A stretch of DNA of 64,000 bases, taken from positions 74,607-138,606 of IMG/VR virus record IMGVR_UViG_3300021399_000113. One strand, 5' to 3'. The notes below the pieces were generated by a model, which saw only the letters and a program-made list of their open reading frames with translations, had not been told where the DNA came from and searched no databases. Positions within the stretch are counted from its first letter, which is position 1. The number at the start of each line of letters is the position of its first letter. Of this stretch, positions 1-64,000 are shown piece by piece. The stretch comes from a virus (taxonomy: Duplodnaviria > Caudoviricetes). The position numbers and the translations under genes were made by a program.

Positions 1-2
1 GA

Positions 3-938
3 ACAGATAAACGTTTAGGTGATAACGTACATATTTTAGCATTTGGTGGTTCTCATGCTTATGGTACAAATGTGCCCACCAGTGATATTGATGTGCGTGG
101 AATAGCCTCAAATTCTATTGATGATGTTATTCTCAATAAAGGATTTGAAGAGATTACTGATAACACAACAGATACTGTTATTTATTCTGTTGAGAAGATG
201 TTTAGACTTCTTGCACAGTGTAACCCTAATACCATTGAAATCGTTGGTGTAAAGGACTACCTTAAAGTTGATGAAATCGGAAAGATGATTCTTGATAACA
301 AGAGTATCTTCCTTTCCAATGCTTGCACAAGAACATTTGGTGGATATGCTACACAGCAGTTATATCGTTTAAGACAGAAAACACTCAATGCGCTTGAAGA
401 AGATGAACTTGAGCGTCATATCGCTAAGGTTTTAAATGAGATGGATAAATACATCAAAGAGAACTTTGGCATCTCGGATTATAGGGTTTACTATGACACA
501 GAGCTTAAAATTGATATGCCAGCCGTTAAAGGATTTCCAATGGAAAAACTTTATGATTATCTTAATACTCTCAACTGTGTGGTTAGGGATTATCATAAGC
601 GCTCTGTCAGAAATGAAAAGGCTATTGCCCATAACAAGATTAACAAACATGCTATGCATCTTCTCAGACTGTTTATGATGGAAGAAGATTTACTGCTTAG
701 GGGTGAGGTAATCACCTATCGAGAGAAAGAGCATGACTTGCTTATGGCAATTAGAAATGGAGAGTTTTACGATACTGAAAGTGGACAGATGACAGCAGAA
801 TTCTTCAAATTGTTAGAGGATTATGAGAAGAGAGTTGAATATGCAAAAGAGCACTCAATTCTCCCTAACAAGCCTAACATGAAAGCCATTGATAAGTTAC
901 AGTTGGATATTTTCAATAAAAGGTTGGAGATGAGATGA
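3..938 (+). CDS. Nucleotidyltransferase (RlaP/PF10127-like), 5'-truncated by window edge
   Basis: Frame is open from position 3; GGSHAYGTN..SDIDVRG Pol-beta NTase signature; NPN.IE and KHAMHLLRL motifs. Confidence 0.85.
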   Translation, partial: TDKRLGDNVHILAFGGSHAYGTNVPTSDIDVRGIASNSIDDVILNKGFEEITDNTTDTVIYSVEKMFRLLAQCNPNTIEIVGVKDYLKVDEIGKMILDNKSIFLSNACTRTFGGYATQQLYRLRQKTLNALEEDELERHIAKVLNEMDKYIKENFGISDYRVYYDTELKIDMPAVKGFPMEKLYDYLNTLNCVVRDYHKRSVRNEKAIAHNKINKHAMHLLRLFMMEEDLLLRGEVITYREKEHDLLMAIRNGEFYDTESGQMTAEFFKLLEDYEKRVEYAKEHSILPNKPNMKAIDKLQLDIFNKRLEMR

Positions 939-2263
939 TAACAGAGATAACACCTATCAGCTTATTCTTTAATGTATTAGACCATATAGTTGGTACAAAC
1001 AATAAAAAGAATTACATACAGCAGTATGCTACCGAAGATATAAAATACGTTATGCAGTGGCTATACGATACCAGTATAGTCACTGGCATTTCTGACAGTA
1101 AGTATGACAAAGAGGTTGAAGAGGTTCAGCCTTATAAGACCTTAAAAGAATTGTTCTTATACCTTAGCAAGAGGCATACTGGGAGTGATTATGATATATC
1201 TGTGGTTAAATCCACAGCAAAGCAACTGTGTAAATGTGAGACTGATTTCAAATTCTTTAAATCATTATTAACTAAAAATGTAAAGGTTGGAATTGACAGT
1301 AAGTTAATAAATTCGGTATTTCCGAATTTAATTCCGACCTTTGATGTGATGTTGGCTGATAAATACCTTGATTTAGATGATAAGCAATTAAATAAAGTAT
1401 CTAATAATGGCACAAGGGAATTTGTACTACAAGAAAAGTTGGATGGATTTAGGTGCATTGCTATTAAAGAGGGTGAAAGCGTTAGACTTATTTCCAGACA
1501 AGGTAAGTTGTATGAGAATTTAGTTGATGTAGAATCTGCTATTATCAAGACATTTAAGGGATATGACTGTGTACTTGATGGAGAACTTCTAATATCTAAC
1601 AGAGAGAATATTCCAAGCAAAGAACAGTACAAAGCCACGTCAAAGTTGGTAACCCTTAAAGATGTGGAAATTAAAGGAATTACATATAACGTATTTGATT
1701 TATTACCAATTACTGATTGGCAGAATAAAGTTGGTAATAAACCTTACGATGATAGATACAGCACGTTATGTTCTTATATGGCTAAAAACACCAGCAATGC
1801 CATTAAAATCGTCCCTTGCTTATATCGTGGTAACAATCTCGATGAAGTATTAACAAGGCTTAAAATAGCCAAAGAAATGAACTGGGAAGGGTTAATGCTG
1901 AGGTGGGTAGACTCCCTTTATGAATTTAAACGTAGCAAAGAATTACTAAAAGTTAAGCCCTTTAATGAAATGGATTTAATCATTACTGGGTATGAAGAAG
2001 GAACTAATAAAAACAAAGGAAAACTTGGTGCATTTATATGTGAGGTAGAACACCCTAAATTTGGTCATATTGAAGCCAAAGTAGGTGGTGGATATTCTGA
2101 TGAAGAAAGAGAGAGATTCGCAGAAATCCGTAATGATTTAATTGGAAGAACTATTGAAGTGCAATACTTTGAGGTTACTGAAAATACTACAACACATATT
2201 AAGTCATTAAGATTTCCTGTATATAAATGTATAAAAGACATAGGAGTTGTACCAAACAACTAA
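935..2263 (+). CDS. lig: ATP-dependent DNA ligase
   Basis: QEKLDGFR (KxDG adenylation motif), LDGEL, EGLMLR, LLKVK, C-terminal OB domain with SLRFP. Confidence 0.95.
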   Translation: MITEITPISLFFNVLDHIVGTNNKKNYIQQYATEDIKYVMQWLYDTSIVTGISDSKYDKEVEEVQPYKTLKELFLYLSKRHTGSDYDISVVKSTAKQLCKCETDFKFFKSLLTKNVKVGIDSKLINSVFPNLIPTFDVMLADKYLDLDDKQLNKVSNNGTREFVLQEKLDGFRCIAIKEGESVRLISRQGKLYENLVDVESAIIKTFKGYDCVLDGELLISNRENIPSKEQYKATSKLVTLKDVEIKGITYNVFDLLPITDWQNKVGNKPYDDRYSTLCSYMAKNTSNAIKIVPCLYRGNNLDEVLTRLKIAKEMNWEGLMLRWVDSLYEFKRSKELLKVKPFNEMDLIITGYEEGTNKNKGKLGAFICEVEHPKFGHIEAKVGGGYSDEERERFAEIRNDLIGRTIEVQYFEVTENTTTHIKSLRFPVYKCIKDIGVVPNN

Positions 2264-2273
2264 GGAGCATAAA

Positions 2274-2807: not shown

Positions 2808-2812
2808 CAATT

Positions 2813-4030
2813 TTGGAACTGTACAAGCAAGGTGAACATTATACTTTATATAATGGCAGTATGTTGGAACTTAATAATGTAATAGCGGATAACAGCATTG
2901 ATAGTATTGTCTGTGACCCACCTTATGAATTAGGGTTTATGGGAAAATCTTGGGACAGTTCTGGAATTGCCTTTAATCCAGATACTTGGAAAATTTGCTA
3001 TAATGCTCTGAAAAGCGGTGGGTACTTATTAGCATTTGGTGGAAGTAGAACATATCATAGGATTGCTTGCGCCATTGAGGATGCTGGATTTGAAATAAGA
3101 GACACTATTATGTGGATTTATGGTTCAGGGTTTCCAAAATCTATGAATATAGGGCTTGCTATTGATAAAAAGAATGGTGTAGAAAGTAAGATTAAAGCAC
3201 AGAATGAATGGGATGGCTGGGGGACAACGTTAAAACCAGCATTTGAACCTATAATAGTAGCAAGAAAGCCGTGTGAGGGCAGTACCACAGATAATGTTCT
3301 AAAATATGGTGTGGGTGGTATCAATATTGATGAGTGCAGAATCCCAACAACGGACTATTTATATAATCATGGTAATTCTAAAGGCACTATTAACAGTTTT
3401 TCTGTCGGTAATTTCAAGAAGGCAATTAAAGGAGAAAATGCAAGCACTGAACTTGGTAGATTTCCCGCTAACTTAATCCTCACATATGATGAGTCTGATT
3501 ATGATGAAGTGTGTGGTGGATTTCCTGTTGGTGGTAACGCTGTGTATGATAAGTATAATGGGGTTAAACCTTTTGAGGCTTATGATGACGAAGGCTCTGC
3601 ATCTCGATATTTCTACTGTGCTAAAGCAAGCAAGCGAGATAGAGATGAAGGGCTGGATAGCTTTCCAACACAAACAAAAGTCTTCAATGGAAAGTCTGAT
3701 ATGAGTTCAAAAGATATAAAGGACGTTGAGAAGCGGTTCACGACAGAGGGCAAGAACGTACATCCCACAGTCAAGCCAACTGACCTTATGGAGTACCTTG
3801 TGAGATTAGTGACACCTAAAGGTGGAACTGTTCTTGACCCGTTTAATGGGAGTGGTAGCACTGGCAAAGCCGTATTATATGAAAACCTTGACAGAGATAA
3901 AGATTATAAATATATTGGTATTGAGTTAGAGAGAGAGTACTGTGGAATCAGTGTGGCAAGGCTTGATTATGTCGAACAGCTATTAAAACAGCCCAAGCAA
4001 CTTTCTCTCTTTGATACATTGACAACTTAA
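2813..4030 (+). CDS. DNA amino-methyltransferase (N4-C/N6-A, beta-class motif order)
   Basis: DPPY near the N-terminus; HPTVKP and VLDPFNGSGSTG near the C-terminus. Confidence 0.9.
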   Translation: MELYKQGEHYTLYNGSMLELNNVIADNSIDSIVCDPPYELGFMGKSWDSSGIAFNPDTWKICYNALKSGGYLLAFGGSRTYHRIACAIEDAGFEIRDTIMWIYGSGFPKSMNIGLAIDKKNGVESKIKAQNEWDGWGTTLKPAFEPIIVARKPCEGSTTDNVLKYGVGGINIDECRIPTTDYLYNHGNSKGTINSFSVGNFKKAIKGENASTELGRFPANLILTYDESDYDEVCGGFPVGGNAVYDKYNGVKPFEAYDDEGSASRYFYCAKASKRDRDEGLDSFPTQTKVFNGKSDMSSKDIKDVEKRFTTEGKNVHPTVKPTDLMEYLVRLVTPKGGTVLDPFNGSGSTGKAVLYENLDRDKDYKYIGIELEREYCGISVARLDYVEQLLKQPKQLSLFDTLTT

Positions 4031-4047
4031 TCATTGTATGATATAAT
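4019..4047 (+). promoter_or_regulatory. sigmaA/70-type early promoter
   Basis: TTGACA-17nt-TATAAT with extended -10 TG. Confidence 0.85.
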
Positions 4048-4081
4048 ATATTCATAATCAAGATAACGAGGTGAATGAACA

Positions 4082-4522: not shown

Positions 4523-4550
4523 AAGAGAACTTAGGTTCTCTTTTTTTTTT
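4521..4550 (+). terminator. Intrinsic terminator
   Basis: AAAAGAGAAC-TTAG-GTTCTCTTTT hairpin with long T-tract. Confidence 0.8.
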
Positions 4551-4554
4551 GCTA

Positions 4555-4583
4555 TTGACAAATTTATTGTTATGTGCTATTAT
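4555..4583 (+). promoter_or_regulatory. sigmaA/70-type early promoter
   Basis: TTGACA-17-TATTAT with TG extension. Confidence 0.75.
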
Positions 4584-4618
4584 ATTATCACAAAGAAAAT
4601 TTATTGGAGGTAAATATT

Positions 4619-5158: not shown

Positions 5159-5170
5159 GAGGTAAGTAAA

Positions 5171-5584: not shown

Positions 5585-6130
5585 ATGAGCAATATTATAA
5601 TTATGATAATTATTTTAATGATTATTAGAGTGAGTGTGATAATCATTCTTGATGCCGATGGAGACCACATTGCCGATGGAGACCACATTAGTGAATTTAC
5701 TAAAGGATATAACAACGGATATAAGAAAGGCAAATACGATGGATATATTGATGGGAAAGACATGGTTCTCCAGCTTATCGACCTTGGGCTGGACAAAAGA
5801 AAAGCGATTTTCAACACTGACAGCGTACAGGAAATTCTGAAGACTTTTGATGTGTTTACTATTAGAAATATGCTTGAAGCTAATAAAGAGTTAAGAGTTG
5901 GAGATATAGTAACGTTCACAAGTAGTAACACACTGTCTGGAAACGCGGTCACCAATAGTGGGGTAATTACAGCTATTGATGAAGGTGCTCACTATATAAC
6001 AACAAAGACTGGATATATTTATGTCGTTTATGCAAGCAAAATACTACGTGTAACGGGTCACTTAACGCAAACTGAGGAATTTTTACGTGCGTTAGATTCT
6101 GCTATTACACATAAGGAGGATGAAAAATGA
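5585..6130 (+). CDS. Hypothetical protein, paralog of 6127-6615
   Basis: Shared GY..GY..GK..L.L..LG...R...F.T.S...IL and VGD.V motifs. Confidence 0.65.
   Translation: MSNIIIMIIILMIIRVSVIIILDADGDHIADGDHISEFTKGYNNGYKKGKYDGYIDGKDMVLQLIDLGLDKRKAIFNTDSVQEILKTFDVFTIRNMLEANKELRVGDIVTFTSSNTLSGNAVTNSGVITAIDEGAHYITTKTGYIYVVYASKILRVTGHLTQTEEFLRALDSAITHKEDEK
5653..5688 (+). repeat. 18-bp tandem duplication (ADGDHI x2)
   Basis: TGCCGATGGAGACCACAT repeated twice. Confidence 0.9.
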
Positions 6131-12212: not shown

Positions 12213-12410
12213 ATGATGAATAAAAAGGATTTAATCATTTGGCTTTACGAACAGAAAGATAACATAGATTATAAACTTCATGTAGAAGGTGCAGAGGGTG
12301 CTTATAGAGAACAGCTGTGGGCACAAGTTAACTTACTTGACACCATCATTGCCAAAGTAAAGAAGGAGTTAGCAGAAAGTATTCAGAGATTTTGTGAAAC
12401 AGATGATTGA
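12213..12410 (+). CDS. Hypothetical protein (probably extends to 12453 if the T4 run at 12390 is T3)
   Basis: Shifted frame gives FVKQMIDSITKELESLGVIG*, similar to the C-terminus of 13997-14251. Confidence 0.55.
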   Translation: MMNKKDLIIWLYEQKDNIDYKLHVEGAEGAYREQLWAQVNLLDTIIAKVKKELAESIQRFCETDD

Positions 12411-12448
12411 TTCCATTACAAAAGAACTTGAATCTCTTGGGGTAATTG

Positions 12449-12499
12449 GTTAACCTACTATAGCCTAATGTTAACGCTATGGTAGGTTAACATTTTTTT
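12449..12499 (+). terminator. Intrinsic terminator
   Basis: GTTAACCTACTATAGC...GCTATGGTAGGTTAAC stem followed by T7. Confidence 0.75.
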
Positions 12500-12515
12500 A
12501 TCATTAAATAAAGTA

Positions 12516-12544
12516 TTGACAGATTTAATTTTATATGATATAAT
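12516..12544 (+). promoter_or_regulatory. sigmaA/70-type early promoter
   Basis: TTGACA-17-TATAAT with TG extension. Confidence 0.85.
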
Positions 12545-12589
12545 CACCAATGTGAGAAACAGATTAGCACAATCAAGCGAGGTAGAAGG

Positions 12590-12847
12590 ATGAAATTGAG
12601 AATATACTTTCATATACTCGGAACAGAACCTTATCACAGAGAAGTATCGTCTGCAGAAGAGGCAAAAATTATGATTGATGCCATTGCAGACTTTGTGAAT
12701 ACAAAGGTTGATGAAGGAGTATTCCCCGACCATTGCAGTACCGCTGGGCTTGAAGAATACGATGAAGAAGAACACGATTGGGTAACTTGGTACGATGAAA
12801 ACGGATTAGATTTAAATGAACACTTTAACACAGAATGGAGAGAGTAA
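12590..12847 (+). CDS. Acidic hypothetical protein
   Basis: GLEEYDEEEHDWVTWYDENG C-terminus. Confidence 0.7.
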   Translation: MKLRIYFHILGTEPYHREVSSAEEAKIMIDAIADFVNTKVDEGVFPDHCSTAGLEEYDEEEHDWVTWYDENGLDLNEHFNTEWRE

Positions 12848-12849
12848 TC

Positions 12850-13041
12850 ATGGTTTGGATTGAGATAGTGTGTGATGGTTGTAGTCATTCTCCTTGTGGA
12901 GAATCTTATAGAAAAGGTTCATTGAAAAGAATCAAAGCAGAGGCAAAGGAGTATGGTTGGAAAACCATCAAGGGAAAAATATATTGTCCCAAATGTCAAA
13001 AAATTTTAAAAGCAATGGCAAAAGTGAGAAAGACGATGTAG
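12850..13041 (+). CDS. Zn-finger protein
   Basis: CDGC...GW...YCPKC. Confidence 0.7.
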   Translation: MVWIEIVCDGCSHSPCGESYRKGSLKRIKAEAKEYGWKTIKGKIYCPKCQKILKAMAKVRKTM

Positions 13042-13057
13042 AAAATGAGGAAGAAGA

Positions 13058-13243
13058 ATGATTTGTGAAAACTGTAAGAACAATACTGAATGTGACTATT
13101 ATTTCCGCAACATCGAACCTGTTCTGCATACAGAACAAGGTATGTTTGTGAATGACAGTTATCTATTTGCATTGTTTAAATGCTTGGACGGTTTTACTTG
13201 CAACTATTATGAACATCAATCAGAAAGTGGGGAAGAAAGATGA
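13058..13243 (+). CDS. Cys-containing hypothetical protein
   Basis: CENC...C...C. Confidence 0.6.
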   Translation: MICENCKNNTECDYYFRNIEPVLHTEQGMFVNDSYLFALFKCLDGFTCNYYEHQSESGEER

Positions 13244-13701
13244 TTAAAACAAGATTAACAGTAGATGTAAATGCAGAGGATTTTGACAAAGAGTTACAGA
13301 AATACCTACAGGAAAAAAAGGAGAAAATTAAGATGACTGAACAATTCTTAATTGATAATAATTACAAAATTCAAAATGCTAAAATCACTTCTGTAGATTT
13401 ATCTATGAAAGACCATGGCTGTCTTACTCTTAAACTTGTACTTGAAGGTAGCGGGTGGGGATGTGTTTTTGGAAATGTCTCTCTGGGCAATGGATTTCTT
13501 GGAGCAAAAACGTTCAAGGGCTGGGAGCACTGCGGTGATTATCTGATGATGCTTATGGACACTGTTGGGGTTGATACCTTTAATGATATGACGGGCAAAT
13601 ATGTTCGTGTAGCCTTTGATGATGAGGATAGAGCGAAAATAATCGGAAATCTAATTGAAGATAAGTGGTTTACAGCGAAGATGCTTGGAGATGAGGTGTA
13701 A
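13240..13701 (+). CDS. Hypothetical phage protein
   Basis: NAKITS...DHG.L....GWG..FG motif. Confidence 0.7.
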   Translation: MIKTRLTVDVNAEDFDKELQKYLQEKKEKIKMTEQFLIDNNYKIQNAKITSVDLSMKDHGCLTLKLVLEGSGWGCVFGNVSLGNGFLGAKTFKGWEHCGDYLMMLMDTVGVDTFNDMTGKYVRVAFDDEDRAKIIGNLIEDKWFTAKMLGDEV

Positions 13702-13704
13702 ATT

Positions 13705-14016
13705 ATGTTAATAAATGGTTCGGATGCGTATTTCTTTTCTCAGAATCAGCTGGGAACATTGTGGAAAAAGATTGATACTGAGGTTAACTCAGCAATATAC
13801 AGAGATGAACTGGCGGTGAAGATTTCTATCCCTAAAAAACTGTCGTTATCAGAAGAATATCGGTTAAAAGATATTCTTACCAAGAACCTTCACTATACCG
13901 TCCACATAGAACAGTCTGAAGTAACTGATATTTATATAACATGGAATGCATTTTTATTTGACGATTGGTGGGAAGATGTAAAGAAGAGGTATAAAGATGA
14001 CACTAAAGACAATTGA
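13705..14016 (+). CDS. Hypothetical protein
   Basis: GAGGTG RBS. Confidence 0.6.
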   Translation: MLINGSDAYFFSQNQLGTLWKKIDTEVNSAIYRDELAVKISIPKKLSLSEEYRLKDILTKNLHYTVHIEQSEVTDIYITWNAFLFDDWWEDVKKRYKDDTKDN

Positions 14017-16419: not shown

Positions 16420-16965
16420 ATGAAATTTAGACTAAAAGAATCCAAGCCCTCCAACATTATAAAACTTGCTGGCTTAAATGGTAACGCTTACAGTACATCA
16501 AAATATTTATATAAACAGATTGTGAGGGAGAATACAAAGTATAATTACGAGGGAGTAACACTCTCTGAAGGGATTGATTATACATTTGACCCTAAGAATT
16601 TGGGTGGTACAATTGTATTCTCTACCGATGTAAACGCAGTTGAAGCCTCAAAAAATAAAATTATAAATTGGGTAAAGCAAAAAATTGCCACTCTCAATAA
16701 CAGACTTCATGCTGTAAATAGAATAGATAAAATTGCACAGAAGCATGACCTTGCTGGCTGGACAGTAGGCAAGGGATTATCTGTTAGGTATACAGCAAAA
16801 AATGGTAAGGTGTTCGGAGAAAATAGTATATCTGTGGATATTGTTGGTATTTCCACTGACACCCTTTTAGAGATTGCAACAGAATTATGTAATTTATTTA
16901 ACCAAGAGGCAGTTCTTGTTAAAGACTACACAACCAAAGATATTTATCTTGTAAATGGAAAATAA
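16420..16965 (+). CDS. Putative SAM-lyase-fold protein with MKFRLKE leader
   Basis: RY...GENS.SV...LLEIATELC..FNQEAVLV resembles the C-terminal SAM lyase pattern. Confidence 0.5.
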   Translation: MKFRLKESKPSNIIKLAGLNGNAYSTSKYLYKQIVRENTKYNYEGVTLSEGIDYTFDPKNLGGTIVFSTDVNAVEASKNKIINWVKQKIATLNNRLHAVNRIDKIAQKHDLAGWTVGKGLSVRYTAKNGKVFGENSISVDIVGISTDTLLEIATELCNLFNQEAVLVKDYTTKDIYLVNGK

Positions 16966-16974
16966 GGAGGACAT

Positions 16975-18339
16975 ATGAATAATCTAATGTTAGAAAATGC
17001 AAACAGATTAGACGAGATTTATAGCACCTATGGCAGACACTATATTCCTCTCACAGAGGCTAATCTTAATCGCATTATTAAGGGACATGATTCTACTGGG
17101 TATGGTGTGTTAAGTGCCTCACGTGCTAACCTCTCAAAAGAAGAAAACGATAAACGCACAAAAGAACTTAAATCAAAAATAAATTCTTTGGGCTACTCTC
17201 ACGTTCCTGTGCTGGGTGGGTATAGAGAAGAGGGAGAGCCTAAAGCAAGTCTGGAAAAGTCCCTTATTGTTTATCCTTATAATTTACGCACAAAGGAATA
17301 TGCAGACCTCAATAAGTTTAAGGATGACCTTGTTGAGTTGGGCAAACATTACAATCAAGACACAGTAATGATTAAAGAACCCGACAAGAACCCTACTTAT
17401 ATTCGCTGTGCAGATAGACAAGCCGATATGGAATTTGATGATGGCTACACTACAAATGATACAGAAGAACCATTCTTTACAGCGCTTAAAAAGTGGAGTG
17501 ATTCTTCTCTTAATCGTAAAAGCCATAATTGGGATAAGGGCAAGCCTCAGAGATTTACACTTAAATCAAATGCTGTTTTTGAGGCATATATTGACCAACA
17601 ACCTATGAGTATTACATCAGAAGTACCTCCAAGATATGCTCTTGGTGAACTTTTTAAGGTTGGATTTACTGGGGAACTGACTGACACATTAAATGAGTCC
17701 AATAATTTCAGAAGAGTTAAACAAGCATTGTGGGGTGACCCTACTGGAAAGATTAGAACCTTTGCTATATTAACTGGTGAAAATCCTCTGGCTTGGGGAA
17801 ATGCTACAGATGATGAAGTTCTCGACCGATACAAAAAATGGCTTAATAATCCAAAAGAATACAATGATAAGATTACTAAGGGACTAAAGGCAGAACTTGT
17901 ACAGAAGTCATTAGAGCAGAATAAAGATAAAGCTTTAAGATATGGTGGGTTTAACTATGCTAAGATTAAAGGAAAGTATGGAGACATCGAGCACTCATTG
18001 ATGATTTTCAATATATCAAAAGAGGATGCTGAACACTTAGCAAGAGCCTATGGGCAAGAGAGTTTCTTTTTTGGTAAGGTATATCCATCATACACACATG
18101 TGGCTTATTACAAAACAACAAATGCTTGTGCAACATATAAATTGATAGAAATATCTGATGTTACAACTAAAGAAGATGGGGATGATTTCTTTAGTAAGTA
18201 TGGTTTTAAGTACAAGATTAACATGAGGGAATTTGGTGATGATGTAATCCCAGTAAAGAATGAGAATGAATTTCAAGAGAGTCTTACTGCACCAATGTTT
18301 CAAAGTAGAGCATCACATCGTAGAGAAGCATACAGATAA
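16975..18339 (+). CDS. Tandem two-domain SAM-lyase-like protein (T3 gp0.3 SAMase/Svi3-3-like)
   Basis: Domain 1: VLSASRANL..EN..R...GGYRE...EKS...LG..YNQDTV. Domain 2: FAILTGENP...GKY...EHS...LARAYGQES. Each starts after an LxE site. Confidence 0.65.
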   Translation: MNNLMLENANRLDEIYSTYGRHYIPLTEANLNRIIKGHDSTGYGVLSASRANLSKEENDKRTKELKSKINSLGYSHVPVLGGYREEGEPKASLEKSLIVYPYNLRTKEYADLNKFKDDLVELGKHYNQDTVMIKEPDKNPTYIRCADRQADMEFDDGYTTNDTEEPFFTALKKWSDSSLNRKSHNWDKGKPQRFTLKSNAVFEAYIDQQPMSITSEVPPRYALGELFKVGFTGELTDTLNESNNFRRVKQALWGDPTGKIRTFAILTGENPLAWGNATDDEVLDRYKKWLNNPKEYNDKITKGLKAELVQKSLEQNKDKALRYGGFNYAKIKGKYGDIEHSLMIFNISKEDAEHLARAYGQESFFFGKVYPSYTHVAYYKTTNACATYKLIEISDVTTKEDGDDFFSKYGFKYKINMREFGDDVIPVKNENEFQESLTAPMFQSRASHRREAYR

Positions 18340-22438: not shown

Positions 22439-22467
22439 TTGACAAATTCCTTCACTTGTGATATACT
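22439..22467 (+). promoter_or_regulatory. sigmaA/70-type early promoter
   Basis: TTGACA-17-TATACT with TG extension. Confidence 0.8.
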
Positions 22468-22511
22468 GTTCTCAGTTGATAAACAGTATATCACTTTTGG
22501 AGGTATTTGGT

Positions 22512-45800: not shown

Positions 45801-45914
45801 ATAAGACAAAGACAAGACGCAGTAAATAAACAAGTAGAAACAACAGTAGGCATAAATAGCCGCAATCTTGCCAATGACTTATACTTAACAAGTCAAGGTA
45901 TTGTTGCGATATAG
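42846..45914 (+). CDS. terL: Terminase large subunit (intein-containing)
   Basis: Walker A SGARGIGK|S, Walker B FFDE, RNase H-type HLDMS, DHP..G.KD..DA. Confidence 0.92.
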   Translation: MININTEQFNNLSAEEQKEVVKILNEYAEKGASVTFDNLLYEDYKEIPVDIETFITDDRYLGKAWKDTENHIKLYPFWLEQLKKLFPTNLDTAYNTLLESGARGIGKAQPLYSKLLTPNGFITMKDVTVGSLVYGEDGKPHKVTHIFPQGEKDVYEVRFSDNSTTRCCKEHLWTVIQKYNHNRETTITLEDIMNRGLRTNPTKHGWTACRFGIPITAPVEFEHRDVFISPYTLGVLIGDGHICGGNTCFTSIDSEIVDRVTSEILPNGYVLSRYEDSYSIVNADKSHKGKINNDNKYKQAIHDLKLDVKSYEKFIPEDYLLTDVNSRIQLLQGLMDTDGYVTKGGYLVYYTTSERLRDDFIFLVQSLGGTAPCRIKKGKYKNTNGEVVECRDCYEITVNLPSSISPCSLTRKLIRLNNNKKEPFRTIHEITYVGKEECQCILIDSDKHLYLTDNLIVTHNSEVACGCAMAYLMYRVMCLKNPLEFYHLKPTEKIVFAFMNIKKELSKEIAISKFQKTIQLSPWFMARGTMTQFENAPYWNPPSDISIVIGSQSDDVIGQPIFCAFFDEISFVRNQDIDKQKKKALDMIDTALGGMRTRFIHEGKNPTLLIVASSKRSEQSFMESYIKTKSETEGNSTLVVDKPVWEVKPQGTYKPITFKVGLGNKFLESVVIPDGADVWEYKSKGYTIIDVPIDFKATFIENINRALCDYAGISSFSANKYFSGEVVAENILDFIHNAMPELITVGNMDKVQYKDYFDMTKIPSEYKYKPLYIHLDMSVSGDTTGICGTWIIGKKPTTEGDAGKDLLFRLAFGFAVRAPKGQQISFEKNRNFIRWLREQGFNIGEISADTFQSYDLLQILQSEGFNTTILSVDRVDPESHICKPYQFLRSTVYEHRLQMFKCDRLFDEFVEVERNNSTGKIDHPTGGRKDLLDAVCGSVFTASSHAEEYAYNFGEDLDLAIQTNTANPMITQQQIQMNLDDILKSIRQRQDAVNKQVETTVGINSRNLANDLYLTSQGIVAI
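43167..44225 (+). mobile_element. Ala-start class-3 intein (353 aa) with LAGLIDADG endonuclease in the terminase Walker A
   Basis: AQPLYS start; EHLW (Trp, block B), CQCI (Cys, block F), VTHN|S (Thr, block G); LGVLIGDG and LLQGLMDTDG. Confidence 0.9.
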
Positions 45915-46999: not shown

Positions 47000-48889
47000 T
47001 TGGAAGATAATAATGTATTTGAAATAGAAAAGGGCACATATAATAGAGAAACAGTTTCAGTTCCAAAGCCACAACCTAAAACTGGTATGGACACTGATGG
47101 AGCATTCTATGATAATATTATATCGGCTGGCTTAACAAACCAACTTGATACAAGTGAGATTGATAGATTCTCCACATTATCAGAACGTAGAAATCAAATC
47201 TATAAAATGTTTGATGCTATGGGAGAAGATTCAAGAGTGTCTGCTGTATTAGACACATATGCTGAGGATGCTACTGAGCCAAGTGATACTGGTAGAATCA
47301 TGTGGTGTGAATCAGATGATGCTGATGTGGCAAAACTCATTACGTTCTATCTTGATAGCATGAACGTAGATAAGAACTGTTTTAAGTGGGCACACGCACT
47401 CTGTAAATATGGTGATGTTTATTTAAGACTTTATAGAGAGTCAGATGAAGATGACCATTTATTTAACAAAGAGGATATTGACGCAAGAGAGTCAGTAAAC
47501 GAGAATAGGAAGTCAACTCTTACAGAGGCAATTAAGATAAGAGCCTATAAGAAAACGGATAACTATACTCATTATGTTGAGATGAAAGAAAACCCAGCAG
47601 AAATGTTTGAGCTGAGTAAGTTCGGTAAGACTTATGGATTTATCCAAGCAGATGTAGAGCGTGTTACAGACGACAACTCACCGATTATGTACCAAGAATA
47701 TTATAGATATAAGTTTAACCAAAAAGATATAAACATCTTTGAGGCAACTGAATGGGTGCATGGTATGTTGGAAGATAATTCTTCTCGTAACCCAGAAGAA
47801 GTTACAATCTTTTTATCTGACAATCTGGAAGACGAGAAGAAGTATACCTATAAAGTTAAGAGAGGTCAATCTTTACTGTATCACGCATTTAAGATTTGGA
47901 GAGAGCTAACACTACTTGAGAACTCTCTTATGCTTAATCGTGTTACCAAATCTTCAGTGTTAAGAGTAATCAGTTCAGAAGTTAAGGATATGCCAAAAGA
48001 GAATGTCATTCCTCACCTTCAGTCCATTAAGAACATGGTAGAGCAAAAGACAGCTCTTAATACAAATCAATCTATGTCTGAATATACAAATCCAGCACCA
48101 ATGGAGAATACCATTTATGTATCAACAAGAAATGGTGTAGGTGCATTAACTGCATCACAGATTGGTGGAGATGTTGATATAAAATCCATAGCGGACATTG
48201 AGTATTTCTTAAATGCTTTGTTTGGAACATTACGTGTACCTAAACAGTATTTTGGATATGTAGATGATAATGGTGGATTTAGTGGTGGTCAATCACTCTC
48301 TATTATTTCATCTCGTTATGCTAAGTTAGTAAAGCGTATTCAGAATGCACTTATACAAATGGTAACAGATGCAGTCAACCTCATGTTAATTGACGTAGGG
48401 TTAGACGCATATATTAATAAATACACATTAAAGATGCAAGCACCTACAACACAAGAAGAGATTGATAGACGTGATAACACATCTGGAAAGGTACAGCTTG
48501 TATCAGATATTATGAATATGTTATCTGATATAGAAAGCCCAGTTGTTAAATTAACAATTCTTAAAACTTTACTTGCAGATGTTGTAAATGAGCCAGAAGT
48601 AATTAGTCTTATTCAAGAAGAGATTGATAGACTTGAACAAGAGGGTGCAACCGAAGGTGAATCCGAAGAGGGTAATAATGACTTTGGTGGAGAATCTACT
48701 GGCTTAGGTGGTGGTGGATTTGATAGAAGCACACCAATGGATTTAAATGATGAAGCAACTGATTTTGGTGGAGACATAGAGGACAATGAAACCTCTGATA
48801 CAGAAGAGCCAGAAAAGGGTGCTGAAGAAACTGTATTACCATCACCAAGTGATTTAGGTGTTGACTTTACTAATGATAATGAACAGTAA
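47000..48889 (+). CDS. Portal protein (T4 gp20-like)
   Basis: KYGD, W..L.LLE.S....R, DIEYF...LF..L.VPK; position between terminase and protease. Confidence 0.85.
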   Translation: MEDNNVFEIEKGTYNRETVSVPKPQPKTGMDTDGAFYDNIISAGLTNQLDTSEIDRFSTLSERRNQIYKMFDAMGEDSRVSAVLDTYAEDATEPSDTGRIMWCESDDADVAKLITFYLDSMNVDKNCFKWAHALCKYGDVYLRLYRESDEDDHLFNKEDIDARESVNENRKSTLTEAIKIRAYKKTDNYTHYVEMKENPAEMFELSKFGKTYGFIQADVERVTDDNSPIMYQEYYRYKFNQKDINIFEATEWVHGMLEDNSSRNPEEVTIFLSDNLEDEKKYTYKVKRGQSLLYHAFKIWRELTLLENSLMLNRVTKSSVLRVISSEVKDMPKENVIPHLQSIKNMVEQKTALNTNQSMSEYTNPAPMENTIYVSTRNGVGALTASQIGGDVDIKSIADIEYFLNALFGTLRVPKQYFGYVDDNGGFSGGQSLSIISSRYAKLVKRIQNALIQMVTDAVNLMLIDVGLDAYINKYTLKMQAPTTQEEIDRRDNTSGKVQLVSDIMNMLSDIESPVVKLTILKTLLADVVNEPEVISLIQEEIDRLEQEGATEGESEEGNNDFGGESTGLGGGGFDRSTPMDLNDEATDFGGDIEDNETSDTEEPEKGAEETVLPSPSDLGVDFTNDNEQ

Positions 48890-49453: not shown

Positions 49454-50998
49454 ATGCCTCAAGATACAGTAAATGATGGTTTATTACATTTTACTGACGA
49501 GAATGGAATAGAGAAAGCCATATTAGGTACATTAGAAGGTGCTTGTGCAGACTTCATTGCTCCCACTCGTAATGGCAGATTATATAATGATGAACTGTGG
49601 GGGGAAGTTTTTGAAAAGAACCCTATAGTGAATGAGTTATTTGAAAATGGTGGTATCGTTGGTGAATTAGACCACCCAGCAAATTATAATTCAGAGGGTG
49701 TCGAAGACAGAGATGAAAGCGACACTTCCAGAACGGCAATTCTGTTAAAGGAAAAGCCAGTAAAAAAAGATGGTAAATATTGGGCAAAGTTTTTAATTCT
49801 CAATACACCATTAGGTAAGATTGCGTATACATTAGCAAAGGCTGGATTTAAATTTGGTGTAAGTTCAAGAGGGTCTGGAGATGTTCTTACAGATGATAAT
49901 GGTAATGAATATGTCGACCCACTTACTTATGATTTTAAAGCATTTGACTTAGTATTGTTACCAGCAGTTAAGTCTGCAAGGTTAAGTCTTGTTACTGAGT
50001 CATTAGATACCAAAAAGAAATTTAATTATAAAGAAGAACTTACAGAGCAAATCAATTCTGCTGATGATGAGGGTAAAAAGTTAATAACAGAAACCCTTGA
50101 CCATTTAGGAATACGCTATCAATCAACCGATAAGGTTGTTAATATAGAGGATGAGCCTACTAAAGAAGAAGTTGTCAATGACAAGTCAGATTTAATTAAG
50201 CAACTCCAAGAAGCATTATTGAATAACCAAAAGTTAGAAAAAGAGATTACTAATCTTCAAGAAAAATTATCAGTTTGTTATACAAAGGAAAGTCGTAACG
50301 AAGAAGTAATTGAAAAGTATAAGACTTCAATTCAGAAGTTAACCGAGTCACTAAAAATTGCTAAAGTAGAATCCCTAAAAATTCCAAAGTTACAGACTGT
50401 AATTTCTGGTCTTAAGGAAGATATTAATACTAAGGATGCAAAGGTTGCAGAATTAACTGAAAAGTTAAGAGTAAGTGCAAAGAATAAAAAGGGATTAAAT
50501 GAATCTCTTGCTAAACAAGAGAATGATGTAAAAGAATTAACTAATAGAGTACATACCTTATCTGAATCCTTAAAGGAAACCAGAGTAAAGGCAAAACAAG
50601 ATGTTGAAACTCTTACTGAAAAGTTAGAAGACTTAAAGAAGGATTCCGCTATTAAGAAAAAGGAATACTCAGATAAGTTAAAACAGTCCAATGGACTTGT
50701 TGAGAAATATAAATCAATCGCAAAGACAGTTGTAAATGAGTATATTAGTTCTCAAGCGAAAATGATTGGAGTAGGCACTGCTGAAATAACCAATAAACTT
50801 CCTGCTAATTATTCATTAAATGATATAACTGCTGTTTGTGAAAGTTTAAGAGATACAAAGATAGCATTAAATAAATTACCATTTGATACAAGAAGAATGG
50901 CAAATGCAAAAATTGTTGCTAATCAACCAAAAGAGCCAATTCTTCCAACAAATGAAGATGATATAGTTGATGAATCTTTGTTATCATTTTTACGCTAA
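49454..50998 (+). CDS. Prohead protease (T4 gp21-like) fused to a coiled-coil scaffold
   Basis: NGRLY, GELDHP, TP.G, GVSSRGSG, FDLV..P; long coiled coil with many LxES sites. Confidence 0.9.
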   Translation: MPQDTVNDGLLHFTDENGIEKAILGTLEGACADFIAPTRNGRLYNDELWGEVFEKNPIVNELFENGGIVGELDHPANYNSEGVEDRDESDTSRTAILLKEKPVKKDGKYWAKFLILNTPLGKIAYTLAKAGFKFGVSSRGSGDVLTDDNGNEYVDPLTYDFKAFDLVLLPAVKSARLSLVTESLDTKKKFNYKEELTEQINSADDEGKKLITETLDHLGIRYQSTDKVVNIEDEPTKEEVVNDKSDLIKQLQEALLNNQKLEKEITNLQEKLSVCYTKESRNEEVIEKYKTSIQKLTESLKIAKVESLKIPKLQTVISGLKEDINTKDAKVAELTEKLRVSAKNKKGLNESLAKQENDVKELTNRVHTLSESLKETRVKAKQDVETLTEKLEDLKKDSAIKKKEYSDKLKQSNGLVEKYKSIAKTVVNEYISSQAKMIGVGTAEITNKLPANYSLNDITAVCESLRDTKIALNKLPFDTRRMANAKIVANQPKEPILPTNEDDIVDESLLSFLR

Positions 50999-51372: not shown

Positions 51373-52110
51373 ATGAATATGTATGGTTATGTTTATAAAA
51401 CGACTGACCTAAGAAATAATAAAATCTATATTGGTCAACATAAAAGTGAACAATATGATGATAAATATTATGGGTCGGGAATCATAATTACTTCTTTGAT
51501 AAAGAAATATGGTACACAGAATTTTAAGAATGAGATTTTGTGTGAATGTGCTTCTGCGGAAGAACTAAACGATAAAGAAATAGAATTCATTGCACAGTAT
51601 GATGCAAGAAATCCAGAAATCGGATATAACATTGCAACGGGTGGTGCATTTGGTGATTCTGGTTATCATTTAGGAATGCTTGGAAAAACTCAAACAGATA
51701 AGCAAAAGGCTTGTGCTTCAAAAGCTTGCTCTTACAAAAGGGATAAGAAATTTTGTGAAAGGATGGCACAGCAGACCACAGCCTTGTGGGAAGATGATAA
51801 GTACAGAGAGTTAATGTCCAAGAAACGCAAAGGTAAAATTCCTTGGAACAAAGGGATGACCATAGATGAAGAGACTAAAGAAAAGATTTCCAAGTCAGTA
51901 TCTAAAAGCCTTAAAGATAAATATGAGGCAATGACCGATGAAGAAAAGCTTGCACGTGGTAAAGCAATCTCTGCTGGAAAGAAAGGCAAGGTTGCAGTAA
52001 CTGATGGCAATAAAACTTACTTTGTTTCTTCTGATGAAGTGGATGATTACATACATAAAGGATATTACAAGATGTCCTTACAGAGATATAAGAAACTTAA
52101 TAAACAATAA
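51373..52110 (+). CDS. GIY-YIG homing endonuclease (intron 1)
   Basis: GYVY...KIYIGQH...YYGSG...E...GYN; NUMOD-like C-terminus. Confidence 0.92.
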   Translation: MNMYGYVYKTTDLRNNKIYIGQHKSEQYDDKYYGSGIIITSLIKKYGTQNFKNEILCECASAEELNDKEIEFIAQYDARNPEIGYNIATGGAFGDSGYHLGMLGKTQTDKQKACASKACSYKRDKKFCERMAQQTTALWEDDKYRELMSKKRKGKIPWNKGMTIDEETKEKISKSVSKSLKDKYEAMTDEEKLARGKAISAGKKGKVAVTDGNKTYFVSSDEVDDYIHKGYYKMSLQRYKKLNKQ

Positions 52111-52600: not shown

Positions 52601-53359
52601 ATGTATGGTTATATTTATAAAACAACAAATTTAATAACCAATAAAATCTATGTTGGACAAAAGAAATCAAATAAGTTTCTTGGAACAAAATATTTAGGTA
52701 GTGGAACGCATTTAAAAGAATCTGTAAAACATCACGGCAAAGAGAATTTTACTGTTGAGTTTATAGATAGTGCAGAAACCGCTACTGAATTAAATGAAAA
52801 AGAAATTTATTGGATAGATAAATTAGACGCACGAAATCCTCAAGTCGGATATAACATCTCTCTTGGTGGTGATGGTAATACATCTGGTACATCTTGGAAT
52901 AAAGGTCTTACCAAAGAACAAGATGAAAGGTTGATTTGTTCAGAGCAGACCAGAATGAAACGAAGTAAATCGTTGAAAAGGTCTTATGCTGAAGGACAAC
53001 ACAAAGTCAACTTTACTGATGAGATTCGTGCTAAGATGAGTGCTAAAGCAAAGGCAAGACCTCATCTTCCAACTACCAATGGTAAGAAAGTAATAAATAA
53101 TGGAGAAACAAATAAAATGGTTTATCCACAAGAACTTGAAACTTACTTATCAAATGGTTGGGTAGTTGGTAAATTACCCAGTAATAAACCAGCGTGGAAT
53201 AAAGGGTTGACTAAAGACACAAATGAGAGTGTAAACAAATACTCAAAGGCAAGACAAAAGCTAATAGCAAGTGGTAATCGAGTTGGTTTTTGTAATGCTA
53301 AAGGGAATCATTTTTCTAAAGGTCAAAAGGTTAAAGAGTTTGTTGCTGAAAACTGTTAA
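52601..53359 (+). CDS. GIY-YIG homing endonuclease (intron 2)
   Basis: GYIY...KIYVGQ...YLGSG...E...GYN; WNKGLTK repeats. Confidence 0.92.
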   Translation: MYGYIYKTTNLITNKIYVGQKKSNKFLGTKYLGSGTHLKESVKHHGKENFTVEFIDSAETATELNEKEIYWIDKLDARNPQVGYNISLGGDGNTSGTSWNKGLTKEQDERLICSEQTRMKRSKSLKRSYAEGQHKVNFTDEIRAKMSAKAKARPHLPTTNGKKVINNGETNKMVYPQELETYLSNGWVVGKLPSNKPAWNKGLTKDTNESVNKYSKARQKLIASGNRVGFCNAKGNHFSKGQKVKEFVAENC

Positions 53360-53677: not shown

Positions 53678-54884
53678 ACCTAACCTTATTGCTAACGAAA
53701 TCGTACTTGTAAAACCTCTTCCAAGTATGACAGGCTACATCAGCTACATGAAGTATTCTTATGGTAGCACAAAGGGTGGCACTGAAGCTGGTACAGAGTT
53801 AAACAGCCCATTCAAACTTGGTTTAGTTGATAAGAACTATACTTCAAGGTTTGTTCCAGAGGCTAAGCCCGCTGTAGCAAGTGGTGGTGTTGTTGCTGGT
53901 ACTCTTACATGGACACCAGTTGTACCTAATTTCGTAGAATTCGTAATTGGTACTGACGTATATCGTGATGGTGGCGATGGTAAGATTTACAAGGGCAGAA
54001 CTGTTACTACAAAAGACACAACTGATAGTTGGGGTAATGTAACTCCTGCTGGTACAGTTGTTAATGCTGGTACAGAAGTTACTGGTTCTTCTATCAACTA
54101 TCAGACAGGTGCTTATACATTTACAGATGTTACATTAACAGAAGCTACAGCAGTTATGTGTAACTATGTATATGATAACGAAGTTGTTCCTCAGAACGAC
54201 CTTCCTACTATTGTTGGTAAGATGGATGGTATCGCTCTTGTCGCTAAGCCAAGACGTATTGCCATCTACTACAATCAGTTAGCACAATTTCAGGCTAAAA
54301 CGGATTATGGTTTCGACCTTGCTACTCAGTTAGCAGAACAGGCAGTTGGTACACTCTCTGCTGAAATTGATACTGAAATCACAGACTTACTTATTGATAA
54401 CGCTACACTTAAGCCTTCACTTACTTTCAATAAGACTGTTCCTATTGGTATCACAAAGCACGAGCACTATGCTGACTTCACTGAAATCCTTGAGTTAGCT
54501 AAGAAAGAAATCTATGATGTAACACGTAGATTCGTTCCTAACTACATGATTTGTGCAAGTGATATTCTTCCTATACTTGCTTTCATTCCAGAGTTCAAAC
54601 AGGCGTCTACTGGTCAGATAAACGGGCCATATTTCGCAGGTACTCTTGGAAGTCTGAAGGTATTTATTGTACCTCGTACAGATTTCGCTGGCAAGTTCGT
54701 AATTGGTGTAAATGGTAACGACTATATGACAGCGGCTGCCGTCTATGCACCTTACATGCCTATCATCCCAAGTGGTGAAGTAACTTACGCAGATGGTCTT
54801 ACATCTAAGGGTTGGGCTACTATGTACGACCTTAAGATACTTAACCCTCTGTTACTTATCAAGGGACAAATCGTTGCTGAATAA
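53678..54884 (+). CDS. Major capsid protein (T4 gp23-like), exon 3
   Basis: PNLIANEIVLVKP..SMTG; L.AEID.EI; YAPY.P gp23 signatures. Confidence 0.93.
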
Positions 54885-58747: not shown

Positions 58748-58752
58748 TATAG

Positions 58753-60345: not shown

Positions 60346-60354
60346 TAAATAATA

Positions 60355-61646: not shown

Positions 61647-62071
61647 ATAAATTAAGAATAGATAATAATCAAAAAATACCATATTCATTTGTTCAATATT
61701 TAAAATCAGAGTTATCTAAGATTATTAAAGTCAACATAGATGATAGTAAGATTAAACAGTTAGATATATATTTCAACGAATTGCTTAATGGTTATAATGC
61801 ATATTATACGACCAGACAAATCATTGAGATGGGGGCGAACAATTTAACTATTACCATTTTCCCACAATATTATCTTATTGGGATAAATGGTAATATGTTA
61901 CTTCCTCAGACAGACATCAAGTTATTAGATGCTTGTAAGCTAATCAATGATGGCAATGTGGAATTAAAAGGATTTCCAATATTTAATAATTGTATAAATT
62001 TTATATCAGATAATATAGATTACTTTTATTATAAGTGGAGTAAGCAGAATGTCAACCTATCTGTACGATGA
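61643..62071 (+). CDS. Hypothetical virion-associated protein
   Basis: LINDGN....G.P motif; synteny. Confidence 0.55.
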   Translation: MNKLRIDNNQKIPYSFVQYLKSELSKIIKVNIDDSKIKQLDIYFNELLNGYNAYYTTRQIIEMGANNLTITIFPQYYLIGINGNMLLPQTDIKLLDACKLINDGNVELKGFPIFNNCINFISDNIDYFYYKWSKQNVNLSVR

Positions 62072-62651
62072 GGCATTGTTAGAAAAATTAAATAACTGGA
62101 CTTCTGGACTTTCTGACATGCACATATATGGCACAGAGGAAACTCGTAGATTGTATGAGGTTGTTGCACAATCCACTGATGATGAACCCATAAGACTTCC
62201 TATGGTTTGTTTGAGAAGAAATAGCGGATTTGAGATATTAAGAACTGGTAAAGTTCCTATGGAATATATTGGTGTTACACTTGAGTCCGATACAGAGAAG
62301 TCAACAAAATTAAAGGCTATTCCAATAAACATTGAGTATCAATTAGATGTTTATTGTAAATTGTATAAAGAAGCAGATAGTTATTTAAGGGAGTTTATTT
62401 TCAACTTTATTAACTATCCAACGCTTAAAATAAAAATTCCGTATAACGATGCTAATTATATTCATAAGGCGAATATTAGAATTTCCGATAATGTAGAAGA
62501 TAATTCTGATATTCCTGAAAGATTGATTAAGGGGCAGTTTACAAGATTATCCCTCAGTCTGAATATAGATGACGCATATTTATGGGATGTTTCTAAGAAA
62601 CAAAATAAGTCTATATCTGATACGGATATAGAGATTGTAGAAGGAGTATAA
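62049..62651 (+). CDS. Tail completion/sheath stabiliser (gp15-like)
   Basis: LPM..L.R...IP.NI.YQLDVY; immediately upstream of the sheath gene. Confidence 0.6.
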   Translation: MSTYLYDEALLEKLNNWTSGLSDMHIYGTEETRRLYEVVAQSTDDEPIRLPMVCLRRNSGFEILRTGKVPMEYIGVTLESDTEKSTKLKAIPINIEYQLDVYCKLYKEADSYLREFIFNFINYPTLKIKIPYNDANYIHKANIRISDNVEDNSDIPERLIKGQFTRLSLSLNIDDAYLWDVSKKQNKSISDTDIEIVEGV

Positions 62652-62652
62652 A

Positions 62653-63978
62653 ATGCCAAGCATTAGAATTGGAGAGGTAGACAATACATTATCAGTTTCT
62701 GCTTTATCAGATACAGACGTTGTATATGTAGCTGGCTTTGTTACAATAGAAGATGGTAAGTATGATGCATCTACTATTGTAAATCCATATACACCAACTC
62801 TTTGTAAGACTATTGAGGAATTTGAAGCATTCTTTGGTACAGAGCCAGCAAAATTCCACACTATTCAGAATTACCAAGGATTTGCACAAAACGCAGTTCC
62901 TGTAGGTGTTCCTATGTTCGAACAAGGCGATGAAGACCTTTCATACATTTATGCTAAGGAGTTAATCGCTCGTGGTATCTCAGTAGTATATGAGAGAATT
63001 AATGCTCTCGATGCTTACCCATCGGTATCTGATATGTATGATGCTCTTGCTGGAACAGGACCTGTTGATGTATTCGAGAACTTAAAAGATAAAGGTGAAT
63101 ATACTGTTAAGTATTTAACTACTGGTGGTTATCCATCATTTGAGTATTATGGTGTATCTGAGGGTGGTAACATAATTGTTAATAAGATGTTATCTTGTGC
63201 AAGCGATAGAGGTGACTGTGTTGCTCTTATTGACCCTACTGATAATCCAGACAGAGTGTTAATCCCAAGTAACACAACTTCTGTTTACTACTCAGCAACA
63301 AATACAAACTCATCATATAAGATTGGTACGAATGGTAGCTATGGTGTAATTGCTAACCCTACATGGGTAAACGTTACTTGTGATATAAATGGTACATCAG
63401 AATCAATGCCACCTTCATATTGTTACTTAACAGCTCTTGCTAAATCTATTCAAGATGGTAACCCTAACTTCTTATCCATTGCTGGTGTAAGTCGTGGATT
63501 TATCCCTAACTTTATTTCATTACATACAAATAAAGTTCTTACAAATGCCATTGCAAATGGATATGAAACAGATACTGGAATTAGTATCAATGCTGTTACT
63601 AACATTAAGCCTTATGGTTACTGTTTCTGGGGTAATAGAACTCTGTTAAACAATGCCATTGCTGGTGATAAGACAGCGTTCTCTTTCCTTAATTTAAGAA
63701 ACCTTGTTTCTGATATTAAGAAAGTTGTTTATACGACAGCAAAGAGATACACATTTGAACAGAACACTGACGTATTGCAAGTTAACTTCCAAAACGCAGT
63801 AGAACCTACATTAAAGGCAATGAAGTCTGGTAATGGAATTAAGAATTATAGTTTCAAATTTAATAAGACTTCTGATAAAACGAAGTTATCTGTAACAATT
63901 AAGATTATTCCTATTTATGCAGTTGAAGATTTTGATATTTCAATTGTAATGGAAAATGAAGAAGTTACAGTAGCGTAA
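62653..63978 (+). CDS. Contractile tail sheath protein (gp18-like)
   Basis: MP.I.I.EVD; RGDC.A.ID; MPPS; IAG..RG; WGNRTL; LN.RNL; FEQN; I.P..A.E. Confidence 0.9.
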   Translation: MPSIRIGEVDNTLSVSALSDTDVVYVAGFVTIEDGKYDASTIVNPYTPTLCKTIEEFEAFFGTEPAKFHTIQNYQGFAQNAVPVGVPMFEQGDEDLSYIYAKELIARGISVVYERINALDAYPSVSDMYDALAGTGPVDVFENLKDKGEYTVKYLTTGGYPSFEYYGVSEGGNIIVNKMLSCASDRGDCVALIDPTDNPDRVLIPSNTTSVYYSATNTNSSYKIGTNGSYGVIANPTWVNVTCDINGTSESMPPSYCYLTALAKSIQDGNPNFLSIAGVSRGFIPNFISLHTNKVLTNAIANGYETDTGISINAVTNIKPYGYCFWGNRTLLNNAIAGDKTAFSFLNLRNLVSDIKKVVYTTAKRYTFEQNTDVLQVNFQNAVEPTLKAMKSGNGIKNYSFKFNKTSDKTKLSVTIKIIPIYAVEDFDISIVMENEEVTVA

Positions 63979-64000
63979 TATATAAAGGAGTGAAAGATAA

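Follow-up and report, generated by a model that had tools for sequence, protein, structure and literature searches.

How far can selection on short DNA words reach into the proteins that the DNA encodes? The question is raised by IMG/VR record IMGVR_UViG_3300021399_000113, a 138,606-bp phage sequence (completeness 83% per CheckV, guanine plus cytosine (GC) content 35%) whose bases 74,607-138,606 form the window, i.e., the whole stretch of 64,000 nucleotides that was analyzed. The initial annotation had reported a purge of CCNGG and GATC from this stretch and a lack of Pro-Gly in its proteins, and had ascribed both to restriction by the host. Both words are indeed at 0 in the window and in the record, against Markov expectations as well as shuffles, and the purge is broader than first noted, as it also includes CTAG, GGCC, CGCG, GCNGC with Ala-Ala, GGNCC with Gly-Pro, GGNNCC, many 6-mers, and CCTGA. 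The reading that we favor, at a probability of roughly 0.85, is classic restriction-site avoidance that is far enough advanced to cost amino acids.

Word counts were compared with Markov models of orders 0-2 and of maximal order, and with synonymous-codon shuffles preserving every protein and the codon usage. In the window, CCNGG, CCWGG, and CCGG were all at 0 (22-62 expected under the Markov models), as were GATC (209-244 expected) and CTAG (98-209 expected), while GGCC and CGCG occurred once each (47-64 and 15-62 expected, respectively). The whole record likewise holds no GATC, CTAG, CCGG, or CCNGG, the last against 141-149 expected from orders 0-2, and contains 2 GGCC, 1 CGCG, 1 GGNNCC, 7 GCNGC (136-166 expected by Markov), and 9 GGNCC (68-148 expected by Markov); with orders 0-2 alone, the expectations for GCNGC and GGNCC are 136-141 and 128-148, respectively. 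Further zeros across the record are CGWCG, GATATC (44-64 expected), ATCGAT, GCATGC, GAGCTC, GGTACC, and CTCGAG, and low counts were found for CTGCAG (n = 1), CAGCTG (n = 2), CCATGG (n = 3), and ATTAAT (47 against 108-132). The shuffles predict 337 ± 14 GATC, 173 ± 11 CTAG, 59 ± 7 CCGG, 41 ± 6 CCWGG, 62 ± 8 CGWCG, 94 ± 9 GGNNCC, 48 ± 6 GATATC, and 38 ATCGAT, against an observed count of 0 for each in that comparison, and 75 ± 7 GGCC, 53 ± 6 CGCG, and 22 CTGCAG, where there are 2, 1, and 1. Overall, four words are at zero (GATC, CTAG, CCGG, and CCNGG) and about 20 more are nearly so, most of them palindromes.

The depletion is word-specific, as the observed/expected ratios of AATT, TATA, and ATAT lie at 0.89-0.93 in the window (Markov), and control palindromes are normal when compared with the shuffles (TGCA, 595 against 586; GTAC, 377 against 385; TTAA, 1173 against 1200). 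For AGCT the reduction is no more than about 2-fold. CCTGA/TCAGG, which is not a palindrome, falls 8-10-fold short in both orientations (8 against 59 and 9 against 93 in the shuffles), while CCAG/CTGG is normal; ACSGT and ACGCC/GGCGT are likewise low. CCTGA/TCAGG is not known to match an enzyme; a Type IIS, IIG, or III system might recognize it. The scarcity of GAGGAG in genes (2 against 55 expected) may come from selection against Shine-Dalgarno-like sequences inside genes, or GAGGAG may be a further restriction site.

The footprint of these losses in the proteome was assessed with a crude gene call over the whole record, comprising 205 open reading frames (ORFs) and 42,124 residues, from which dipeptide expectations were derived by composition. 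Pro-Gly, whose codons CCN-GGN always produce CCNGG, is missing altogether (0 against 61 expected, and 0 against 31.9 in the genes of the window), so the lack of this dipeptide that had been reported from the large proteins extends to the entire record; since CCNGG occurs on neither strand, no reading frame at all can encode Pro-Gly. Ala-Ala (GCN-GCN, always GCNGC) occurs 4 times against 111 expected, Gly-Pro (GGN-CCN, always GGNCC) 8 times against 61, and Trp-Pro (TGG-CCN, always containing GGCC) never, against 13. The lost dipeptides are exactly those for which every codon pair creates a purged word, and in relatives that retain the words the same four dipeptides have observed/expected ratios of about 0.5-1.4. 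Trp-Met is normal (8 against 11.5 expected), and GGATG is likewise without depletion.

GATC leaves a protein footprint even though a synonymous escape exists (GAC for GAT). Asp precedes a codon starting with C 181 times against 399 expected, and GAC is used in 181 of 181 cases, which extends to all such codons the GAC usage first seen in Asp-Pro, Asp-His, and Asp-Gln. These three dipeptides themselves occur 48, 39, and 25 times against 85, 58, and 87 expected, respectively, and no comparable deficit before C-starting codons was seen for Asn, His, Tyr, Phe, Cys, Ser, or Glu.

Conserved residues have been replaced at several positions, and a few sites have been kept. In window coordinates, all on the plus strand, they are as follows.

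3008..3022, plus strand: methylase LKSGG, against LKPGG in 92 of 119 homologues
48008..48013, plus strand: portal residues 337-338, Ile-Pro, against Gly-Pro in 95 of 121 sequences
48092..48100, plus strand: portal residues 365-367, Pro-Ala-Pro, against Pro-Gly-Pro in 118 of 120 homologues
54282..54287, plus strand: capsid residues 186-187, Ala-Gln, against Ala-Ala in 113 of 118 homologues; avoids GCNGC
54600..54605, plus strand: capsid residues 292-293, Gln-Ala, against Ala-Ala in 98 of 118 homologues
62731..62736, plus strand: sheath residues 27-28, Ala-Gly, against Pro-Gly in 139 of 149 homologues
5944..5947, plus strand: the sole CGCG of the whole record
54624..54629, plus strand: residual GGGCC (a GGNCC and the only GGCC of the window) at capsid Gly300-Pro301
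54732..54740, plus strand: two overlapping residual GCNGC at capsid Ala336-Ala-Ala338

The clearest case is the portal protein, where N-P-G-P has become N-P-A-P, a change that eliminates one CCNGG plus one GGNCC. The 120 portal homologues are 49-59% identical to the query, and the change is shared by the 97% and 78% identical relatives only. At portal residues 337-338, the 97% relative also has Ile-Pro and the 78% relative retains Gly-Pro. In the methylase, 95 of 119 homologues have Pro-Gly at the LKSGG position. The initial claim, of word-level selection on the DNA that is strong enough to alter proteins, gains good support from the conserved Pro-Gly replaced in the portal (118 of 120), the methylase (95 of 119), and the sheath (139 of 149). 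Of the motifs that had been offered in its support, LKSGG is a real substitution; TPKGG, also in the methylase, is the norm of its subfamily, and MPSI is merely the N-terminus of the sheath, so neither counts as a substitution. A smaller comparison, of seven structural orthologues against just five outgroups, offered too few conserved forced-dipeptide columns (5, of which 4 were lost; Fisher p = 0.16) and was superseded by the larger homologue sets.

Sites that remain are informative as well. Across the record, 8 of the 9 GGNCC encode an in-frame Gly-Pro and 4 of the 7 GCNGC an in-frame Ala-Ala; copies removable by silent change are almost all gone. Capsid Gly300-Pro301 is kept in 117 of 118 homologues, and this near-invariance indicates that the protein constraint wins at the residual GGGCC. 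The Ala-Ala at capsid residue 337, shared by 114 of 118 homologues, has been lost in the 89% identical relative. The purge looks to be still ongoing, halting where the protein cannot yield.

Surviving 6-bp palindromes cluster at positions 12312-13747, which hold both CAGCTG, the sole CTGCAG, and one of the three CCATGG. The chance of such a cluster is about 5e-7 for a fixed 1.5-kb span and about 4e-5 when corrected for position. The region consists of small ORFs without a Pfam match and may be a recently acquired, still unpurged segment.

Relatives were compared by observed and expected word counts in loci of about 22 kb around the portal gene (15 loci, portal identity 97% to 32%). Those at 97% and 78% identity carry the purge of the query. 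The latter, from SRR13434680, also lacks AGCT (0 against 16 expected in 5.6 kb), and the same purge was found in the independent samples SRR25542883 and SRR13434680. Beyond these, the set of purged words changes from relative to relative. Locus L004 has purged GATC (0/63), CATG (0/81), and ACGT (3/55) and retained CCWGG (24/30), CTAG (41/81), and CCGG. Locus L005 is without GATC, CCGG (1/24), GGCC, and ACGT and retains CCWGG (13/20) and GCWGC, and locus L006 is without GATC and ACGT, with CATG very low (6/69). Only a mild GATC depletion is seen in locus L007, no avoidance, CTAG and GATC included, in locus L008 (ena:ERZ27303200 k141_2104028, 235 kb), and near-normal counts in seven more distant relatives. 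Because the purged sets differ among relatives, clade-wide inheritance, mutation bias, and assembly artefact are excluded as their cause. A lineage-specific spectrum is what host-specific restriction pressure predicts.

The portal gene of L008 is translatable only when TAG is read as glutamine, and six in-frame TAG codons lie in the portal match at G002:C4:33820-35247. In both relatives, TAG apparently encodes an amino acid.

Genes of the window lie nearly all on the plus strand, and those identified are the following.

935-2263: ATP-dependent DNA ligase (Pfam)
2813-4030, plus strand: beta-class N6/N4 DNA methylase (Pfam PF01555, E = 8e-32)
16420-16965: ORF adjoining the S-adenosylmethionine (SAM) lyase gene, weak match to the SAM-lyase family (E = 3.9e-4)
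16975-18339, plus strand: SAM-lyase-domain protein (Pfam PF23780, E = 4.9e-18)
22458-23741: superfamily 1 helicase (Pfam)
34225-36690: radical-SAM enzyme with intein (Pfam)
42846-45914: intein-bearing ORF, putative terminase (Pfam matches to intein domains only)
47000-48889: T4-type portal (Pfam)
49454-50998: prohead protease (Pfam)
53727-54884, plus strand: gp23-type capsid protein (capsid family from Pfam on the 97% relative)
62653-63978, plus strand: tail sheath (Pfam)

The ORF at 42846-45914 is a putative terminase as judged by its location upstream of the portal. The PDB relatives of the methylase are CcrM, DpnA, and M.RsrI. The Walker A motif of the helicase, GYAGTGKS, was considered as an example of Pro-Gly loss and set aside as ambiguous, RecD2 having GGPGTGKS and the best PDB relative GYAGTGKT. 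Anti-restriction cargo had also been claimed for this region, and of this the SAM lyase and the N6/N4 DNA methylase were recovered by Pfam, so the claim is confirmed in part. A DNA methylase (2813-4030) and SAM-lyase domains (16420-18339) coexist in this phage, and destruction of SAM would starve the phage's own methylase; the two activities are thus presumably kept apart in time or place.

Restriction is the best explanation for these observations, as the initial annotation had proposed. The absence of the words with its statistical weight and lineage specificity, the replaced conserved residues, and the places of the residual sites are shown, while the role of restriction enzymes as the selecting agent, and their identities, are inferred. 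An unmodified site on entering DNA would carry a risk of cleavage, and mutants without the site would survive better, such that over time a lineage may lose the target words of many Type II enzymes of its hosts. Most sites would have been removed by synonymous codon choice. Where words align with codons and leave no synonymous escape, as in Pro-Gly, Gly-Pro, Ala-Ala, and Trp-Pro, amino acids would have been replaced instead, even at near-invariant positions, and a few sites would persist where the protein is intolerant of change, e.g., at capsid Gly300-Pro301. The SAM lyase and the DNA methylase may cover systems that site loss cannot evade, SAM-dependent ones among them, as well as at least one site that was left unpurged. 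The purged words correspond to the sites of familiar Type II enzymes, namely Sau3AI/MboI, BfaI, HpaII, HaeIII, FnuDII, EcoRII/BstNI, TseI/Fnu4HI, AvaII/Sau96I, NlaIV, EcoRV, ClaI, SphI, SacI, KpnI, PstI, XhoI, and PvuII.

Four points weigh against restriction-site avoidance. No cognate restriction enzyme is linked to any purged word. About 25 words would be a very large repertoire for one host, which implies numerous strains or species, or else a long history. Depletion of CCTGA/TCAGG and GAGGAG, which lie outside the classic Type II palindromes, may be due to something else. Finally, many genomes have little CTAG through causes unrelated to restriction, though it is not known to drop to 0 of about 173 in them.

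Within this reading, it is possible but doubtful that one ScrFI/SsoII-type cutter of CCNGG, as the initial annotation had it, drove the loss of Pro-Gly, in place of independent pressures against CCGG and against CCWGG. With CCNGG at 0 in 138.6 kb, total loss of Pro-Gly would be explained most simply by one specificity. However, CCSGG always contains CCGG, so that a CCNGG count of zero equals a CCGG zero plus a CCWGG zero, and both readings predict identical counts; the ScrFI-like specificity was therefore not affirmed. Moreover, L005 purges CCGG but retains CCWGG, and L004 retains both, which shows that the two pressures are separable. GGNCC is likewise the sum of GGCC and GGWCC.

Methylation-dependent (Type IV) restriction is an unlikely main driver. 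Here, sites would be removed so that progeny DNA escapes methylation and is then spared by McrBC-, DpnI-, or SauUSI-like enzymes when it enters a new host. GATC, CCWGG, CCGG, GGCC, and GCNGC are common methylase targets, and the loss of a site evades methylation-sensitive and methylation-dependent enzymes alike, as with the DpnI/DpnII pair. SauUSI, which targets S5mCNGS (PMC6532042), also counts in favor of this explanation. Yet it needs the same host methylases and hence the same restriction-modification systems, so the data do not separate it from Type II pressure, and the 6-bp words (EcoRV, ClaI, KpnI, SacI, SphI, and PstI types) are better explained by ordinary restriction-modification. 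Methylation-dependent restriction may nevertheless add to the benefit of losing sites.

It is very improbable that the phage shuns words cut by nucleases of its own that degrade host DNA. Homing-type endonuclease domains are present in the genome in the form of LAGLIDADG inteins, but homing enzymes have long targets, about 25 words would require many enzymes, and a Pfam scan of 50 proteins (of about 205 ORFs) matched no restriction-enzyme family. An origin without any selection on words, i.e., through mutation bias, codon usage, CpG depletion, shared ancestry, or assembly artefact, is refuted by the synonymous shuffles and by the differing purged sets of the relatives: CpG-containing words are low in general (TCGA, 62 against 209 from base composition) and CTAG is rare in many genomes, but Markov models from first order up and the shuffles absorb composition and codon usage and still predict tens to hundreds of sites, GATC and CTAG, which contain A and T, are also at zero, and independent samples agree.

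Avoidance of short palindromes in phages was reportedly described by Sharp in 1986 and Rocha in 2001. Restriction-site avoidance is established for non-temperate double-stranded DNA phages (Rusinov et al. 2018, PMC6286503; reviewed in PMC8410138), and the query resembles known avoidance in that depletion of Type II targets is word-specific and lineage-specific, such depletion being strongest in virulent double-stranded DNA phages. It differs in that the purge is total for four words and reaches conserved residues, whereas the accounts in PMC6286503, PMC8410138, and PMC6532042 treat avoidance as site loss or synonymous choice. The words "amino acid", "codon", and "dipeptide" never occur in the text of PMC6286503, and our literature search found no account of dipeptide loss via site avoidance, which is no proof that none exists. 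The query is thus an extreme case of known avoidance, notable for the breadth of its purge and its rewritten conserved motifs.

The loss of GATC from Staphylococcus phage K (Kayvirus), as a defense against Sau3AI, is the textbook example (O'Flaherty et al. 2004, cited in PMC6532042). Like the query, phage K is a large myovirus with several words totally lost; it is virulent and infects a low-GC Gram-positive bacterium. The two phages share no DNA match and are unrelated in sequence. In positions 1-100000 of phage K (NC_005880), GATC, GGCC, CGCG, and GGNCC are at 0 and GCNGC at 3. Dipeptides are lost there too (Gly-Pro, 0 against 49 expected; Ala-Ala, 3 against 56; Trp-Pro, 0 against 7; Asp-Gln, 36 against 73), because sites of GGNCC, GCNGC, and GGCC are lacking. 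In contrast to the query, phage K retains CTAG (n = 348), CCGG (n = 54), CCNGG (n = 58), and Pro-Gly (34 against 49); the query goes beyond it by also purging CTAG, CCGG, CCNGG, GGNNCC, and many 6-mers. Dipeptide loss, shown in both phages, seems to be a general effect.

The nearest cultured relative by portal, at 31.7% identity, is Streptococcus phage vB_SagM-GXN1 (PQ819873), which shares with the query a T4-type portal, a gp23-type capsid, a sheath, and a similar GC content (35%), and has a host among the Bacillota. Unlike the query, it does not avoid GATC (217/217) or CTAG (285/313), and only GGCC (2/23) and CCGG (5/17) are low.

The query amounts to a natural experiment: selection on words in the DNA outweighs selection on proteins, as the proteome of 42,000 residues falls about 230 dipeptides short of expectation and motifs conserved in 80-98% of homologues have been rewritten, with the surviving sites marking residues that the capsid cannot lose. 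We find it fairly probable that restriction pressure acts as a proteome-wide constraint, in which words of the form XYN-Y'X'N make certain dipeptides "forbidden", with precedence over near-invariant motifs (portal PGP to PAP being one example), and that its footprint may be read from proteins alone to infer the restriction environment and date host shifts. The list of purged words would be a record of the restriction enzymes met by an uncultured phage and could aid host assignment and the choice or engineering of restriction-evading phages. It also calls for caution in annotation, as the absence of "invariant" phage motifs may stem from selection at the DNA level and not from loss of function.

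None of the searches bearing on the host identified it. The cultured-phage collection yielded no DNA match and no protein match to the capsid region, the IMG/VR search by portal patterns no close relative, and no endolysin homologue was found in the 138.6-kb record or among the Pfam-scanned proteins. In GTDB, portal relatives, all distant, sit in bins of 1.4-2.0 Mb assigned to Bacilli, Acholeplasmatales, Clostridia, and Firmicutes from rabbit, yak rumen, and human gut, an association that is binning evidence only. A 20-kb BLAST against 399 genomes of the class of the GTDB portal relatives returned only short matches at chance level, and none of the three that were checked lay in clustered regularly interspaced short palindromic repeat (CRISPR) arrays.

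By portal, the cultured phages closest to the query (26-32% identity) have Streptococcus, Bacillus, and Listeria as hosts, and uncultured relatives number in the thousands, from gut and rumen metagenomes. A large phage (at least 138 kb) of gut or rumen origin, the query combines a T4-type portal with a gp23-type capsid and a tail sheath; a virulent lifestyle is suggested by its T4-type structural module, a transfer RNA cluster, and its size of more than 138 kb. At 385 residues, the capsid ORF is shorter than many homologues, which have 479, and ORFs lie just upstream of it at 51373-52110 and 52601-53359. Mobile introns probably interrupt the capsid gene.

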